A DNA stretch of 64,000 nt from Mayamaea pseudoterrestris (GCA_027923505.1 BROI01000004.1:992001-1056000), one strand, 5' to 3'. Numbered from the stretch's first letter, positions 37,985-45,120 are shown. The notes: generated from the sequence alone by a model not told the origin. Numbers and translations are program-made.

Positions 37985-39339
37985 TTACAAAAAGTAATCT
38001 GGAGTCTTGCGCGTTGAGTTCGGCTCGCCTCGTCGTGGAGCCGGATCAAACTGCAGAAACTGCTGATGGCGCAGATCCTCATCCACTTCCAAAATCGCCG
38101 CTTGGTTACCGCATCGATAGCAATAGTTGGGCGCCGAAAAGATTGTCACCACTTGCCCCTCGTGGCTCCAGTTGTATCCCTCCATGACCAACTGATGCGC
38201 CCGCGCCACTGTCGAAAGTCCATTGCGCTGGTTAAAGGCGGCGGAAATGTCACTGCCAAAGGTGAATCCAGCTCCTCGCGGCGAAATGCCCCAACCGGAT
38301 CGGTCGTCAGGATCCGACCAAAGCAAATCACATTGGGGACCTTCGTGTGGAACCTCCTGAACACGATCCAGCTGTCTTATGTGATCCAGCGTGTCAATGG
38401 ACGGAGACAGTCCACCATGCAGACAGAAAATGGCGTGATCAACCACGGCAGTGAGCGGAAAGTAGTCGAATAAATCCGTAAACAGTTTCCAAACGTTTGC
38501 AGAACCGTACTTGCGGACGCACTCGTCGTAGAATCCGTAGACTTGCGTAATTTGTCGACTCTCGTGGTTGCCGCGCAAAATAAAGACGCGGTCAGGGTAG
38601 CGTACCTTGAGGCAGACCAAGAGCGACACTGTCTCGACCGAGTAGTAGCCCCGATCAACGTAATCACCTAAAGTGAGGGATGAACAGTTGACATGAGTAT
38701 AAAATTGTTGTCGATTTATGAAACAAAGCAAACCATGCGTTTCAACAAGCGTTGTTACGCCAAACACTGTGCTCATCCAAGACTAAAAGTTTTGACTCGG
38801 AAACAACGCACTACTCACCCATGAATACGTAATTCGTAGAGGGCGCGCTTCCTCCTATCTGAAAGAGCTCCATCAAGTCATGCCATTGTCCCTACATTGG
38901 AAGTGGAGGGGTGAAGATGAAAGTTAGTCATGCAATGCATGTTTCGCAACGTCAAATGTCTCTCACGCCGAGTTCGTCAACACCAAGCAAGTACAGCCAA
39001 ACATATATAGAAATGTTCATTGTTTCATAAACATACATGAATGTCTCCACAAATCGTGACTGGCGCTCGGACGGGCTGCACGTTGGATTCCTGCAGGAGC
39101 CGCTCCCTAGCCAGTTCCGTCAGCGCCTTGACCTCCGACTCGGTGAGGGGCGTTCCCTGCGTCAGTTTCGCGAGCCACGCCTCCAAGTCGTGGTATGACC
39201 GTTCGGGGTCCATGGATGATGATGAAGCTGATTGCATGGGTGGTGGTGGGGGAGGTGGTGGGGGAGCACTGAGCGTCGAAGATCCGGATGGCGATTTGCT
39301 GCCTTGTTCTGCTGAAGTTGGTCCGGCTGCGTCACTCAT
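37985..39339 (-). CDS. PPP2C: serine/threonine protein phosphatase 2A catalytic subunit; exons 39339-39037, 38891-38819, 38667-37985
   Basis: GDIHG, GDYVDRG, RGNHE, SAPNYC, C-terminal TPDYFL; both GT-AG introns restore the frame. Confidence 0.95.
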
Positions 39340-39627: not shown

Positions 39628-42600
39628 ATGCTTGCTTCTACTAGACTGCAAGCAGTATATTTATGCTTACTTTCTTGTTCATTATGGCAATATGAGGCTT
39701 CCGCTTTTCACTTTCCGCTTTCGTTAGCTCGGTCAAGCAGTCGACTCTCGGCAGCATCGGGCTCATCCTCAACACCGTCTTCATTGGATCCCATTGCCTT
39801 TGGCGCGGGCGCATCCACAAAGTCGGATCTGGTTCAAGCCATTACGGAAGCAGTTTCATTGGCGTTGGATTCCTTGCCGCGCCACGCTCGTGCGATTGAC
39901 TTGGGACTGGTATCCGTGTCGAGCTTGTACGACGGAGGCATTCATCCAGTTTCCACCACTGTTGTTCCGGCGATACTAGCGGCGTTGCAAGTATATCATG
40001 ATGATCAAACGAAAAACAACAACCAGCAATCTACCAATAATGAACCGTATACATTGAAGAATCTCATGGGATCTACAGTGGCGGGTTGCATTGCCAGCGT
40101 TCCCAGTCGCCAACCATCATCGTCGTCATTTTCAAAAGCCGACGCATCCACTGCCTTTGTAACTCGCGCCTGCCAACCCATCGAGTACGAAGGCGTTCCC
40201 GCCGTGTCCATTACTCTGTGCGTATTGCCGGATTGTAGCGCCAGAGTCTTTCACGTATCGGCGGCTGACCTGCCGGACGATCCGGATGGACAAGTGAGTC
40301 TCGACGAGTGGAAGCGCATTGTTGGACTCAAGGGGTTTGGTGATGATGATGATGATGATGATAATAATAGTAATGACAACAAAGACGCGGCGCCGCCCAG
40401 CTTTCTACTCGTTCCTCATCCCGCCTTTGCCACGGACTTGGACGATTTCTTGTCCAGTCTCGCCACCTACTTTCCAAACTCGCCCTGCGTGGGAGGGATC
40501 GCCTCCACTGTGTCGTCTTTATCGCGCGCCAAGCTCTTTTTGTACGCGCCCGGAGCATCCACGACGTGTCACGCGGATGGCTGCGTCGGCGTGGCGCTTT
40601 GTGGCGACGTGCGGCTGGAGCAACGCACGGCGCTCGGCGCCAAGCCCGTGGGAGGCATTTACCAAATCGTCAAGGGACAAGATGCGACCATTAACGCCAT
40701 TGTGTTGGATGAGACGGCCACGGAAGCACTTCATGATGAGGAAGATGATGATGATGATGATAGTTTGGAGGAGACGGAGGAAAATGAAGCTGACATGACC
40801 AAGAAGGAACGGTTGATTGCGTCCTACGCCAAGGCTCGCATTCCGAAGCCACCACTCGCCGAAGCAAACTTTGTCATGCGCACGCTTTCGGACGATGACC
40901 AAGCATTCATGCGTCGCGTACTGCTCGTGGGACTAGACCAGGGCGCCGGAGGCATTGGAAGGACGGCGTCGGAACTGGCACGGTTGGCGCAGGGCGAAGG
41001 ACATCGGTTCACGGTCAAGCAAGTGGCAAGTGGCGGCATGAAGGATGGCAGTGTCACGTTCCCGTTGGGGAGTGTTAACATCAAAGCCGGTACTCGAATG
41101 CGATTCTTTGTGCGTGAGAGTAGCTTTGCCAAGAAGGAGATTAAGGCATTGTGGACTGGATATAAAAAGTCTATTTTGGATGAGCAGTTTCAGTCGTCGA
41201 ATGGTGCAAGCAGCACTATATTTGAGCCTGCTGCGTGCTTTGTGATACCTACACTCGACAGAGGCAATAAATTCTTTCTGGGAAAGGCAGGATATGAGAG
41301 CAATGCAGTGGCGACGTCACTTCCAGGCGTCCCATGTATTGCTGGATTCTTTTCAAACGGAGTTATTGGACAGATTGATAAATCAGAGAACAAAAAAGTC
41401 GGCGTTCAGGGAAGTGCTTCGAGCTATATTTTGATTGGAAGTCGATCTGGTCGGCCAATCTACTCACCGGCAAGTGCGGCATCTGACGAGGCCTCGGAAC
41501 AGATACGACTGGCGGCGCAGAAAGCCGAGGCGACGAGATTGGCAGCAGAGGATGAAAAGCGACAACAACGAATGAAAACTCATACTGTCGGTGAAAGTGA
41601 AGCTGCGCCGCGGAACGAGCAGGGTGAACTGATATTAAAGCGACGAGAGGTGCATGCTGGTCGCGCCCTTACGGTATCCACAGTCGAATGGAGTGTTGCT
41701 GAGAAAACAGCGAAACCTTCCAGTGTTTTGGAAGGATATATGTGGGACAAGGAGACTGAGGTTGATCGATTTCGGGAGCGAGTTCCATTGGCCAATCTCG
41801 TGTCGCAGTGTCGCCTCTCGGCAAGTGACCCTGCTGCTGTTAAACCGCGAGACTGGCTGAAACCTTTGACTGATGCTATTGCGTCCGATGGATTCGTTAT
41901 CATTCCGGAACTAAAACGATCGGAGCCAACTATTGGCTCCATTCGGAAAAAATACGATTTGAACAAACTCACCAAGATCTTTGTCGAAGCGAAGGTTCCT
42001 GTATTGTGTGTAAACTGCGATCAGATATTATTTGGCGGTTCGCTGGACGACGTTTCGACCGTCCGACAAGCAGCTACTACTGCCGCTATCGACCAAGCAT
42101 CAGAGGACGGGGTAGTGGTGCCGCCGCTATTGGCATCTGATCTTTTGTTGTACCCGTATCAGCTCTACAAACTTCGCTTGGCTGGAGCTGACGCAGTAAA
42201 CCTTATTGTTGGCGCCTTGGAAAAGAAAGATTTGATATATCTGACGAAGATTGCCTCCACTCTACAACTGCAATGCCTTGCAACAGTCACTTCCGAGATT
42301 CAGATACAGAATCTTTCAGTTTTAACAAAAGGTGGTATTGCAGGAGTCATTGTTTCAAATCGAGAATTGGAGGATTTCTCGTTTGACATGTCGGGTGAAC
42401 AAGCTCTGCGATTATTGAAAAGCGACGCTTTGAAATCCTGTCTTGAGACTCACGGCTCGGATATTCCCGTGCTCGTCGAAGGTCGCGTGGGTATGATCAC
42501 GCGAAGAGACTCCAGTGGGACGGAGACGACGCGTGCCTACCTCGATGAGCTCAAGGCAGCAGGCGCCAACGCTGCCATTGTTGGCGGAGGTCTTGCGATC

Positions 42601-42651
42601 GAAGGAAGCGATACCGCGCAGCTACTGGAATCACTTCGCGCTACTGTATAA
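39628..42651 (+). CDS. plastid-targeted FIST-N/FIST-C + IGPS(TrpC)-like TIM-barrel fusion
   Basis: Signal peptide ending EASA-F; FIST-like GSTVAGCI, VGGIAS, GCVGVAL, GAKPVG, GTRMRFFVRE, GFFSNGVIG; IGPS-like IIPELKRSEP, FGGSLDDV, YPYQLY..RLAGADAVNLIV, SNRELEDF. Confidence 0.8.
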   Translation: MLASTRLQAVYLCLLSCSLWQYEASAFHFPLSLARSSSRLSAASGSSSTPSSLDPIAFGAGASTKSDLVQAITEAVSLALDSLPRHARAIDLGLVSVSSLYDGGIHPVSTTVVPAILAALQVYHDDQTKNNNQQSTNNEPYTLKNLMGSTVAGCIASVPSRQPSSSSFSKADASTAFVTRACQPIEYEGVPAVSITLCVLPDCSARVFHVSAADLPDDPDGQVSLDEWKRIVGLKGFGDDDDDDDNNSNDNKDAAPPSFLLVPHPAFATDLDDFLSSLATYFPNSPCVGGIASTVSSLSRAKLFLYAPGASTTCHADGCVGVALCGDVRLEQRTALGAKPVGGIYQIVKGQDATINAIVLDETATEALHDEEDDDDDDSLEETEENEADMTKKERLIASYAKARIPKPPLAEANFVMRTLSDDDQAFMRRVLLVGLDQGAGGIGRTASELARLAQGEGHRFTVKQVASGGMKDGSVTFPLGSVNIKAGTRMRFFVRESSFAKKEIKALWTGYKKSILDEQFQSSNGASSTIFEPAACFVIPTLDRGNKFFLGKAGYESNAVATSLPGVPCIAGFFSNGVIGQIDKSENKKVGVQGSASSYILIGSRSGRPIYSPASAASDEASEQIRLAAQKAEATRLAAEDEKRQQRMKTHTVGESEAAPRNEQGELILKRREVHAGRALTVSTVEWSVAEKTAKPSSVLEGYMWDKETEVDRFRERVPLANLVSQCRLSASDPAAVKPRDWLKPLTDAIASDGFVIIPELKRSEPTIGSIRKKYDLNKLTKIFVEAKVPVLCVNCDQILFGGSLDDVSTVRQAATTAAIDQASEDGVVVPPLLASDLLLYPYQLYKLRLAGADAVNLIVGALEKKDLIYLTKIASTLQLQCLATVTSEIQIQNLSVLTKGGIAGVIVSNRELEDFSFDMSGEQALRLLKSDALKSCLETHGSDIPVLVEGRVGMITRRDSSGTETTRAYLDELKAAGANAAIVGGGLAIEGSDTAQLLESLRATV

Positions 42652-42672: not shown

Positions 42673-44921
42673 TTATAATTCAGCTATTGCTTGCTCCATT
42701 TCTGCGTCTTGCTGCGTCGCCGGCGCCGTACTCGTGTCCTTGGTTTTCCGTCCTTCCTTATACTGCGGCCGTACACCCCTTGCAATAGGACCTGGATAAG
42801 TAAAGCGCTCAGAGGTGCGAAAAAGTTTGTTCAAGTATCCAATACGGCTAGGATGGCAAATAGCATTGTTGCCTAGCGGTCGGAGGGTGTCCATTGCCAT
42901 TTGACAGCACTGAAGGAAGCTTTTGGCTCGAAAGGTCATGTGCTCGCGAGCATTAATGTACGTTTGCAAAAGCAGCTGAAGTCGGCACCGAATATAAAAC
43001 ACTTCCTCCTCGCTGCAGACGGTGCGTTCAGGGTCAGAAAACTCTATTAATGCTCGCCAACCATCAAACGTACTCAGTGCCGCACGAAACGTTTCAATGC
43101 GCCTGTCAAGAGTCTTTGACACATCTGCATCGTCTATCGTCGTACCAAACAAAAAACAAGCCTCGCTGCTGTTCCAAAATGTGACATTTTGGAATTCATT
43201 CAATACTTGTGGTGGTGGCAAGCGGGGTCGTTTCGCTGGGAGTGCACGGCCGTTGCCCTTTCTCTTTTCAGTATTAATCGTCACTTTTGCAGAAACGGCG
43301 GTTGCAGCATCTCGAGCAACGCTAGAAACTGGCGGCGGACCCGTGCCTACAATAGGCTTGCAAACACTCTCTTCATACGCTTCAACGTCTTTTATAAATT
43401 CGCTTTCAAGCTCGATGCGAGAAACCAGCCACTTGTTGACATGGTAGTATGTGACACCCTGGCATCGCTGACGATAGACGCCAATCGTATTTCGCTCGTC
43501 AAAGTAATCAATCTGTGCATTCAACCCTGGGTTGCGCGACAATGATCGACTAAATTCTCCCTTGTTGAAATTATTCAAATCAAAGCTTGCGTCCCGCAAC
43601 AGCATGGCCGATAGTGGTTGCAGCTTCTTGTAAACGGCGTTGAACCACGTTGACGCCGATATCCAACGACCTAGCAGTGGCGCTCCCAAAATCGAATCGT
43701 CGCGCACCTGCTGCAACGCTCTCCAAACAATTTCGCCCTTGGTTGGCGGGCTAGCCTTGCGCAATTGACTCGGCGCCATGATTGGTGTCACGACGTTGAC
43801 CACCGAGGTTCGTTGCGGCGGCGGAGGCGCTTTTTTAGGTTTTGCAACCGGCAACCGTTTCCGTTTCACGTTCCTGCCCGTGGGACGACGCGGCAATGCC
43901 GACGGCGCAAAGCCTCGTCCCTGCGCCAACGCCAATGGAGACGGACGCGAAGTCTTTTTGCAGCCGTATGATATAGCCAGGGAAAGTAAACCTTCATTTG
44001 CGCCTCCGTGTAGCCTCCCACTGGCGGAACTGCGGCACCCCAGTACGGAAAGGTTGGGTTTGACGCAACGTCAGCCCAGACTTTGGCAAGGTCTGCTACT
44101 CCTGACGCTGCCGCTTGAGTATTTTTACTTGTTGTGATGGTCGTTGTAAGTTGTGTTGTCACAATACCAGACTGATGCACTGCAGTTTCTACTGGCTCTT
44201 TTGTTTGATTCAAATCGACTGACTCCACCAGAGAGCTTGTTTTGGTAAACAGGTTAGCCTTTTCCGTAGCATTTGCAGCAGTGGAGCTTGTGTTCGATGA
44301 ACCATGTTTAGCAGCAGTCGAACCATTCGTAGTTAAAGCTGATTCTTTGTCATCAGCAACATCCGCAGCTTTCTCTACACTAGCCATTGCTTCTTCTGAC
44401 TTGCTACTCGTAGCAGCTTCTGCGTTACTTTCACCATGTAAATTGCAGTTACCCAATGATTCCTTCGCGACAGTCGAAGAAGCAGCAGTCGAATCGTTCG
44501 TCGAAGCTGAATCAATTTTGTCAGCGTGATCCGCAGCTTTCTCAAGATTCGCCATGGCTTCTTCTGACTGAGTAGCAGCTTCGTTAATTTCTACATGTAT
44601 ATTGCTAGTCTCCAATGATTTCTTCTCGCCGGTCACAGCTGCAGCAGCAGCAGTCGAATCGTTCATTGAAGCTAGTTCATGTTCGTCAGCATTATTCGCA
44701 GCTTTTTCACATCTCGCCATGGCTTTTTCTGACTGAGTAGCAGCTTGAGCGTTAATATCGTCGTGTAAATTGTTGCTAGTCTCCAATGATTTCTTCTCGG
44801 CGGTCGAAGCTGCTGCAGTGACTTTTTCTTGTGCAGCGCTAAATTCCTTGTCACAAGAATGCATCAGCTGATCCACTGGAAGAGAGTCCATTCTCAATCC
44901 CAAAGTTACAATGTTGTTCAA
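42673..44921 (-). CDS. hypothetical protein, probably one gene split by a 1-nt frameshift in the A5 run at 43955-43959; N-terminal repeats, C-terminal domain possibly transposase-derived
   Basis: Adding one A fuses ORF 43866..44921 to 42673..43935 (HTAAK-KTSRPSPLALAQG). Confidence 0.55.
44310..44800 (-). repeat. three ~165-170-bp coding repeats
   Basis: EKKSLETSN.H...AATQSE.AMA..EKAA..AD...AS.NDSTAA x3. Confidence 0.85.
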
Positions 44922-45120
44922 GAAAGGTGTGAATGGCGCAGCATTAGCTTGACAACAACAAGCGAAACAAACAACGAAGTGTGATGGAGCTGCTTGCTAA
45001 ATGATTACCGTTACGACGTTCTTTTTTTAGTACCTTTACGACGTGATCAATCGGCATCGCATTTTGATCGTCGTCACCATGGCCACAAGCCGATCAAGCG
45101 CTGCACAAAAAAGCCTTTCA

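Follow-up and report, generated by a model that had tools for sequence, protein, structure and literature searches.

We think it likely that a nuclear gene of the diatom Mayamaea pseudoterrestris encodes a plastid-imported protein of two modules, a FIST domain followed by a barrel resembling the synthase of indole-3-glycerol phosphate (IGPS, TrpC), whose role is something other than that of IGPS. The gene lies at positions 39628-42651 on the plus strand of a 64,000-nucleotide stretch (GCA_027923505.1, BROI01000004.1:992001-1056000), hereafter the window, as a single intron-free open reading frame (ORF) of 1007 codons that runs from ATG to stop with no internal stop codon. Its homologues are called IGPS in public annotation wherever they are named, in dozens of algal genomes, and public domain tables already assign both Pfam families, FIST and IGPS, to them. 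The window protein is nevertheless very probably not a TrpC, and we regard it as a widely conserved, mis-annotated member of a little-studied, IGPS-like kind of protein. An earlier reading, made from the sequence alone, had described a plastid-targeted FIST sensor fused to an apparently catalytically dead IGPS barrel; much of that description stands, although some of its claims do not.

The C-terminal module is an IGPS-type barrel, as the sequence-only reading had proposed. Pfam IGPS (PF00218) matches residues 703-928 with an E value of 1.1e-21 and 77.7 bits against a cut-off of 27, and the AlphaFold2 (AF2) model of residues 655-1007, built from a 49-row alignment, folds as a (beta-alpha)8 barrel preceded by a helical extension at its N-terminus, at a predicted local distance difference test (pLDDT) score of 91.7. 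The best natural Foldseek matches of this model are the solved IGPS structures 3t44 and 6y88 (E about 1e-16, target TM 0.85-0.87), the 50 matches listed being either IGPS structures or designed proteins (Kemp eliminases, retro-aldolases), and HMMER against PDB sequences aligns the barrel with the M. tuberculosis and Brucella enzymes at E about 3e-11. Among NCBIfam models the window protein matches only those for TrpC, and all 14 of these matches fall below the model cut-off, the best (NF001372) reaching 137.4 bits against the 370 required.

Active-site residues were read from HMMER alignments to bacterial IGPS, from an alignment of 24 diatom homologues and from an alignment of 19 FIST-fused proteins of the wider family with a plant IGPS control. 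Numbering follows S. solfataricus IGPS, and residue roles are those of the IGPS literature. The E-x-K motif noted earlier in ELKRSEP is retained, the codon for E761 beginning at 41908. The accompanying claim that Asn and Arg are kept in SNRE holds for the arginine, R912, which is the equivalent of R182; N911 is the middle position of N-x-R and not the equivalent of N180, which is replaced by S910. Alignment to the bacterial and plant enzymes confirmed the remaining substitutions that had been listed, LASDL, LATVT and VEGRVG for the IGPS motifs. Not one of the 24 diatom proteins or of the 19 from the wider family carries lysine at the K110 position, and glutamate is missing from the E159 position in every one of those 19; the plant control has both. 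The equivalent of D111, D838, is invariant in the diatoms and that of E210, E951, is present in 23 of the 24. The S211 position is an invariant glycine (G952) in the 24 diatoms, and the G212 position is arginine (R953) in all except one. Outside the diatoms the equivalents of E51, K53, N180 and R182 vary. Because the general-acid lysine and the E159 glutamate are gone throughout the family, the FIST-fused proteins are expected to make no indole-3-glycerol phosphate (IGP). That TrpC has an essential lysine is also stated in the available part of a study of a colourless alga (PMC11528492).

These data bear directly on the possibility that the protein is a working IGPS regulated by its fused FIST domain, with other residues replacing K110 and E159. 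The public annotation and a Pfam IGPS score above threshold are what such an enzyme would show, and the equivalents of E51, K53 and R182 are invariant in diatoms, with that of E210 nearly so, in a conserved pocket. Set against this are the loss of the general-acid lysine in every diatom and wider-family protein inspected, the replacement of E159 and N180 as well, and the wide margin by which every NCBIfam equivalog cut-off is missed. Published work points the same way, as far as the accessible portions of the papers go. Of the three IGPS homologues of Vitrella, Vbra_4894 is canonical and complements E. coli trpC, and the other two are ‘IGPS-like’; the IGPS-like genes of Vitrella and Plasmodium falciparum did not complement, although the proteins were undetectable on blots (Tang et al., 2019; PMC6380595). 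Chromerids retain the fusion alongside a canonical IGPS (PMC6380595), and diatoms carry a separate InGPS-PRAI fusion (PMC3942023). We consider a working IGPS very improbable.

Loss of the IGPS reaction need not mean loss of function. We defined the catalytic face of the barrel from DSSP strand ends, counting the final two residues of every modelled beta-strand and the three that follow, 40 positions in all. Mean column identity over the 24 diatoms is 0.86 for this face, 0.74 for the opposite face and 0.68 for the remainder of the barrel, and none of 10,000 random sets of 40 barrel positions reached 0.86. No part of the barrel is better conserved than this face, so the pocket appears to be in use rather than decaying, and the purifying selection on it speaks more for ligand binding or a new reaction than for a relic. 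The description ‘catalytically dead’ is therefore too strong.

The N-terminal half is a FIST module. Pfam FIST N (PF08495) matches residues 146-353 (E 2.4e-8; 34.5 bits, with the cut-off at 23.2) and is found in 18 of the 24 diatom homologues. The second Pfam family, FIST_C (PF10442), was undetected in the window protein at E<=1; it was found in two of the 24 diatom homologues, and in 11 of 17 scanned wider-family proteins at E<=0.01. The AF2 model of residues 50-640 has a pLDDT of 88.8, and its top match is the FIST domain of human FBXO22 (Foldseek E 2.5e-11), to our knowledge the only solved FIST example. VIA-align, a Foldseek-independent scan of 48,161 chains, aligned 303 of the 327 residues of that domain with model residues 7-558 (Z 25.4, root-mean-square deviation 3.3). 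Because the whole FBXO22 FIST fold is aligned, we include the FIST_C-equivalent part in the assignment. The sequence-only reading had proposed both FIST-N- and FIST-C-like domains; the Pfam match supports the first directly, and the second stands on the fold and not on Pfam. The second fold match of the model is the chorismatase 5a3k (Z 11.7, 242 residues), followed by RidA/YjgF proteins, at Z values of about 6-7, and by barbiturase (Z 6.7). The FIST domain of FBXO22 has likewise been reported, in the part of the preprint available, to be related to chorismatases, cyanuric-acid hydrolases and YjgF (bioRxiv 10.1101/2024.06.03.594717). In an Atlas feature search, 28 of 30 matches were FIST/FIST_C clusters, and the Atlas feature searches as a whole gave generic FIST and IGPS clusters only.

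Several side observations concern this module. Two low-complexity inserts interrupt it, and pLDDT falls below 50 at residues 330-338 of the FIST model, in the Glu/Asp-rich insert. Both inserts were masked as repeats in read mapping (40331-40382 and 40728-40768). Among proteins that lack the fusion, those closest to the FIST half are stand-alone FIST N plus FIST_C proteins of 390-550 amino acids (P0254, P0293, P0294), one of them from a metagenome-assembled genome (MAG) of the Thermomicrobiales. The Atlas also lists stand-alone FIST clusters of eukaryotes, most frequent in haptophytes and diatoms.

NosP proteins are FIST proteins that bind heme and nitric oxide (NO), with a histidine as heme ligand. 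Across the wider family the FIST residues that are conserved are E186, the S293/T294 loop, D327, R496, R545 and E557, with no conserved histidine or cysteine; H459, C319 and C537 are invariant in the 24 diatoms, yet are not kept beyond them. Heme or NO sensing of the NosP type, as suggested by the sequence-only reading, is thus unsupported. The fuller form of that proposal is a dead pseudoenzyme-sensor, in which the barrel binds only carboxyphenylamino-deoxyribulose phosphate (CdRP), IGP or indole and the FIST module senses heme, NO or amino acids. The barrel is indeed derived from IGPS and retains part of the substrate-binding set, and small-ligand sensing has been proposed for FIST domains (bioRxiv 10.1101/2024.06.03.594717, in the portion available). 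The protein could conceivably sense tryptophan (Trp) or indole intermediates. As well as the missing histidine and cysteine, though, a Pfam scan of the window protein found no output or effector domain, the pocket residues of diatoms and chromerids differ, and the family persists where Trp synthesis uses another enzyme. IGPS-like proteins are also present in Trp-auxotrophic apicomplexans (PMC6380595, accessible text). We therefore view a dead sensor of this kind as rather improbable.

Alternatively, both modules could be enzymes, forming a two-step plastid catalyst that acts on a chorismate-derived or sugar-phosphate metabolite. The fold match to chorismatase, second only to FBXO22 and echoed in the reported relationship of the FBXO22 domain (bioRxiv 10.1101/2024.06.03.594717), would suit this, as would the family-wide Glu, Asp and Arg residues of the FIST module and the conserved face of the barrel. 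Tang et al. proposed a new enzymatic activity for AMR1, the P. falciparum IGPS-like protein (PMC6380595). A common fold is no demonstration of function, however, and the FBXO22 FIST domain is described, in the available part of the preprint, as lacking an obvious ligand pocket (bioRxiv 10.1101/2024.06.03.594717). A double enzyme seems to us unlikely.

The two modules are joined by a long helical linker, which has a mean identity of only 0.42 over the 24 diatoms (residues 613-659), and by a segment at residues 660-744 which, at 0.84, is the most highly conserved of the whole protein. This segment connects the FIST module to the barrel and its motifs persist in chromerids; the NCBIfam NF001372 match begins within it, at residue 675, and ends at 1002. 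That two adjacent genes, or a fused gene model, have been misread as one ORF can be set aside as having a negligible chance of being correct. The frame is uninterrupted, the junction is the best-conserved segment, and the same fusion occurs in at least 120 diatom proteins, including one of 1040 amino acids from Skeletonema that is encoded by several MMETSP transcripts tagged ‘type:complete’. The objection that the modules might belong to separate genes, raised in the sequence-only reading itself, is not borne out. Four read runs (X1-X4), of unrecorded kind, speak to the ORF as coverage only. Contigs of X2-X4, in which a neighbouring phosphatase gene is spliced, cover pieces of it at 95-99% identity without joints, and an X2 contig at 41260-41768 bridges the end of the FIST module, the linker and the start of the barrel.

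The fusion is widespread in algae with red-derived plastids. A word-indexed protein search with the window protein gave 198 matches, and the 120 listed are nearly all full-length diatom homologues, at 49-77% identity, in both pennate and centric genera, among them Phaeodactylum, Seminavis, Cylindrotheca, Fistulifera, Nitzschia, Skeletonema, Thalassiosira, Epithemia and Amphora. An exhaustive profile search over 1.84 billion representatives returned 171 proteins below 1e-30, the best 150 being listed, down to 138 bits. The order FIST (with or without FIST_C) then IGPS is found in Vitrella brassicaformis (P0176, CEM12188.1), Chromera velia (P0219/P0275), Nannochloropsis (P0280, P0281), Mallomonas (P0223), Chrysoparadoxa (P0163), the non-photosynthetic Nitzschia Nitz4 (P0129) and several unnamed records, and a partial Pinguiococcus record (P0188) was seen as a profile match only. 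The family is thus conserved in ochrophytes and chromerids, none of the 19 fused proteins having the K110 lysine or the E159 glutamate. There is no apicomplexan among the best 150 of the 171 profile matches. Word-indexed queries with the diatom protein, the Vitrella barrel and a 15-sequence non-diatom profile also returned none, a result that is uninformative on relatedness, as the Vitrella-barrel query missed the Chromera orthologue too. The canonical plant control is the second copy only of P0229 (Brassica cretica, 511 amino acids), which the IGPS profile matches in two stretches and which looks like a tandem or partly duplicated gene model.

The N-terminus has the form expected of a protein that enters a complex plastid. 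Read directly from the translation, the presequence is MLASTRLQAVYLCLLSCSLWQYEASA, followed by F at the junction and then by a Ser/Thr-rich stretch, confirming the signal peptide and ASA-F motif (as well as the single 1007-residue frame) of the sequence-only reading. Phenylalanine follows the junction in 19 of the 24 aligned diatom homologues, the remaining five being N-terminally short gene models, and a signal peptide followed by Phe also begins both chromerid fused proteins, from Vitrella and Chromera. This is consistent with the bipartite, ASAFAP-type plastid presequence of diatoms. Because Phe stands at +1, the protein is probably imported into the plastid and probably stromal. Mean column identity over residues 1-54 is 0.19 in the 24 diatoms.

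The barrel appears to descend from a TrpC of the cyanobacterial or plastid type. NF001372 is the best model, by a wide margin, for the window protein (P0001) and for all four non-diatom fused barrels scanned; it is also the best for a plant IGPS (678 bits) and for three cyanobacterial TrpC pieces (436-443 bits), while one Acholeplasmatales TrpC prefers NF001377. The family motif D[LFI][LVI][LV]Y[PG]YQ[LI][YF], searched for in a sample of one genome per prokaryotic species, has 52 confirmed prokaryotic loci, 46 of them cyanobacterial by title. A quick maximum-likelihood tree of 32 rows was made from 18 fused barrels picked from the 49-row alignment, nine cyanobacteria and a Chloroflexaceae-labelled piece drawn with the other prokaryotes from the motif loci, three Firmicutes-type outgroups and one plant IGPS, one frameshifted cyanobacterial piece having been removed beforehand. 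In it all 18 fused barrels group together in a single clade, which has a long stem and a Shimodaira-Hasegawa-like approximate likelihood ratio test (SH-aLRT) value of 100. This clade falls within a cyanobacterial and plant group that separates from the outgroup with an SH-aLRT value of 100, its placement within the group being unresolved. This supports, without proving, a single origin of the fused barrels from a cyanobacterial or plastid-type TrpC, and shared descent of the window protein with the chromerid FIST-fused proteins is close to certain. The use of InGPS-PRAI for the algal Trp pathway would have left the plastid-type TrpC free to change (PMC3942023, accessible part). The Chloroflexaceae-labelled trpC piece, from a MAG (L038:1165-1800), also has NF001372 as its best model, at 372 bits, and groups in the tree with a cyanobacterial endosymbiont sequence, which may reflect binning contamination or gene transfer.

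Considering these observations together, we suggest the following scheme for a plastid protein with a role distinct from that of IGPS. The barrel would be unable to close the indole ring, the IGP step being performed by the separate InGPS-PRAI. Its pocket would still bind an anionic, probably phosphorylated, small molecule through E761, K763, R912, E951 and R953 together with the Gly-rich beta7 and beta8 loops, and would either convert the bound molecule by new chemistry or report its presence. We see about equal chances that the protein has a new enzyme activity and that its role lies purely in binding or regulation. The FIST module may bind a second ligand or a protein partner, and the two modules would work as one unit through the conserved junction. 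By analogy with AMR1, the protein could serve in the upkeep or biogenesis of the plastid, irrespective of photosynthesis and Trp synthesis.

Several points weigh against this scheme. The tree is narrow, its prokaryotes were picked by the family's own motif, and it contains neither red-algal nor InGPS-PRAI sequences. The expectation of a canonical IGPS in this organism comes from the literature on diatoms in general. A ligand common to the whole family is not assured, because the equivalents of E51, K53, N180 and R182 vary outside the diatoms, and phosphate binding by the barrel can be put forward only tentatively, because the G212 position of the phosphate loop is arginine in diatoms. Finally, AMR1 may be the orthologue of the other Vitrella IGPS-like protein rather than of the fused one.

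Table 1. Features of the FIST-IGPS-like gene, in window coordinates and protein residues.
Feature	Position	Strand	Basis
Signal-peptide-like N-terminus, residues 1-26, ending ASA, with Phe (residue 27) at +1	39628..39705	+	Translation
Ser/Thr-rich, transit-peptide-like stretch, residues 27-54, weakly conserved	39706..39789	+	Conservation in 24 diatoms
FIST module, residues 55-612, FIST N plus FIST_C-equivalent part	39790..41463	+	Pfam, AF2 model, fold match
Asp/Asn-rich low-complexity insert, residues 238-252, inside FIST	40339..40383	+	Translation; low-pLDDT block
Glu/Asp-rich insert, residues 369-386, between FIST N and FIST_C parts	40732..40785	+	Translation
Long helix linker, residues 613-659	41464..41604	+	DSSP helix at 565-590 of FIST model
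Family-specific segment plus IGPS N-terminal helical extension, residues 660-744	41605..41859	+	Conservation
IGPS-derived (beta-alpha)8 barrel, residues 745-1007	41860..42648	+	Pfam, AF2, Foldseek
E761-L-K763, equivalent to IGPS E51 and K53 (ELKRSEP)	41908..41916	+	Invariant in 24 diatoms
S837 at the general-acid Lys site K110 (LASDL for LRKDF)	42136..42138	+	Ser in 23/24, Met in 1/24 diatoms
T886 at the E159 site (LATVT for LVEVH)	42283..42285	+	T/S/A/M/K among diatoms
S910-N911-R912: N180 replaced by Ser, R182 kept	42355..42363	+	All three invariant in 24 diatoms
E951-G-R-V-G for the IGPS beta7-loop E210-S-G (VEGRVG vs (V)GESG)	42478..42492	+	Alignments
Stop codon	42649..42651	+	Convergent minus-strand ORF ends 21 bases downstream

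The gene is flanked by a divergent PP2A-type phosphatase gene and a convergent ORF, both on the minus strand, in a region of even G+C content (about 0.50). A bacterial contaminant was considered and rejected: the neighbouring gene is spliced, G+C is even across the window and the homologues are eukaryotic only. The Ser/Thr phosphatase gene (37985-39339; Pfam Metallophos, E 4e-33) is split by introns, X2-X4 contigs skipping 38663-38815 and 38890-39036 (CT..AC; GT..AG on the minus strand); 38375-38606, also with GT..AG ends on the minus strand, is skipped in X3 only. The convergent ORF (42673-43935, 420 amino acids) has no Pfam family at E<=0.001. A further minus-strand ORF of 351 residues (43866-44921), for which no Pfam family was found, contains roughly three copies of a repeat unit rich in Ala, Glu and Ser (EKAA...D...S..NDSTAA). 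X1 contig joints at 44433-44601 and 44653-45075 have non-canonical ends and are possibly allelic length variants of these repeats.

The database name ‘indole-3-glycerol phosphate synthase’ is very probably wrong for these proteins, and it inflates the redundancy inferred for the Trp pathway. The FIST identity of the N-terminal half appears to be undescribed in the literature we found. By title, the listed papers on FIST domains concern bacteria, FBXO22 or unrelated copper-fist and fist senses, and none concerns algae; our literature search returned only Tang et al. for ‘IGPS-like’ in the relevant sense and found no paper mentioning the Phaeodactylum tricornutum accessions B7G698, XP_002182536 or EEC45823. 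The word FIST is absent from the text of Tang et al. 2019 available (PMC6380595), and the main text of Dorrell et al. 2017 (PMC5462543) contains no mention of indole, tryptophan or FIST domains. The FIST identity and the cyanobacterial TrpC descent offer handles for studying this class of protein in a free-living, transformable alga.

Comparison with known systems helps to place the protein. With canonical cyanobacterial and plant TrpC (NF001372) the window barrel shares its fold, including the helical extension at the N-terminus, as well as the motifs YPYQ(I/L)Y and GADA and the equivalents of E51, K53, R182 and E210; it differs in the replacement of K110, E159 and N180, in an insertion after beta2 and in the FIST fusion. 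The FBXO22 FIST domain (PDB 8ua3, 8s7d) resembles the window FIST over the whole domain at 10-17% identity. FBXO22 is, however, a cytosolic and nuclear F-box substrate receptor, whereas the window protein has no F-box and carries a plastid-targeted presequence and a fused barrel. Bacterial FIST proteins, NosP included, share Pfam FIST N and, in relatives of the window protein, FIST_C. Their usual associates are signalling output domains or partner kinases, whereas the window FIST is fused to a degenerate metabolic barrel and lacks a conserved His or Cys for heme. Chorismatases of the FkbO/Hyg5 type (5a3k, 7% identity) and cyanuric-acid hydrolases share only the pseudo-threefold, YjgF-like fold (Z 11.7 and 6.7). 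FBXO22 is reported to bind the BACH1 BTB dimer through its third repeat (bioRxiv 10.1101/2024.06.03.594717, available portion). The TrpC-TrpF protein of the colourless ochrophyte Leucomyxa plasmidifera is, like the window protein, a plastid protein with the essential lysine of its TrpC part mutated, in this case to alanine, and it has been read as a pseudoenzyme (PMC11528492). It derives from InGPS-PRAI, has no FIST domain and represents a lineage-specific decay of the canonical enzyme rather than an ancient FIST-fused family.

The only studied relatives are the IGPS-like proteins, including AMR1, which is essential to the malaria parasite's apicoplast. PfAMR1 (PF3D7_1363700) is reported to have a TIM barrel that most resembles IGPS but lacks the catalytic residues of that enzyme, and loss of the protein causes loss of the apicoplast, rescued by isopentenyl pyrophosphate (Tang et al., 2019; PMC6380595). 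Isoprenoid synthesis is impaired when AMR1 is depleted, with 1-deoxy-D-xylulose 5-phosphate (DOXP) and methylerythritol phosphate (MEP) increased (Cobbold et al., 2021; PMC8022201), and the protein is 790 amino acids long with a signal peptide (PMC3637116). We put the chance that PfAMR1 is a degenerate form of the FIST-IGPS-like fusion at about one in two. A broader proposal, that the fusion is a single ancient protein of red-derived complex plastids, common to lineages from diatoms to chromerids, with AMR1, needed for apicoplast biogenesis, as its apicomplexan form with a degenerate N-terminal FIST, and that its modules make or sense a small anionic metabolite (chorismate-derived or sugar phosphate) needed for plastid propagation, is doubtful. 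If AMR1 is indeed the apicomplexan form, tractable diatoms would provide a system for solving its biochemistry.

The statement in the sequence-only reading that no characterised protein has this architecture needs qualifying in the light of these proteins. Vitrella P0176 has a FIST domain and an IGPS-like barrel, and because it lacks the catalytic residues and is annotated as IGPS, it is probably one of the two IGPS-like proteins of Tang et al. P0176 and Chromera P0275 have the same domain order as the window protein, and their barrels fall in the same clade (SH-aLRT 100), although the diatom proteins keep the equivalents of E51, K53 and R182 that the chromerid ones have lost. The length of PfAMR1 would fit a FIST module plus a barrel. 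Like the IGPS-like/AMR1 group, the window protein has an IGPS-homologous barrel without the catalytic residues, a large N-terminal extension, signal-peptide entry into a red-derived complex plastid and a pattern of retention that is independent of tryptophan synthesis.

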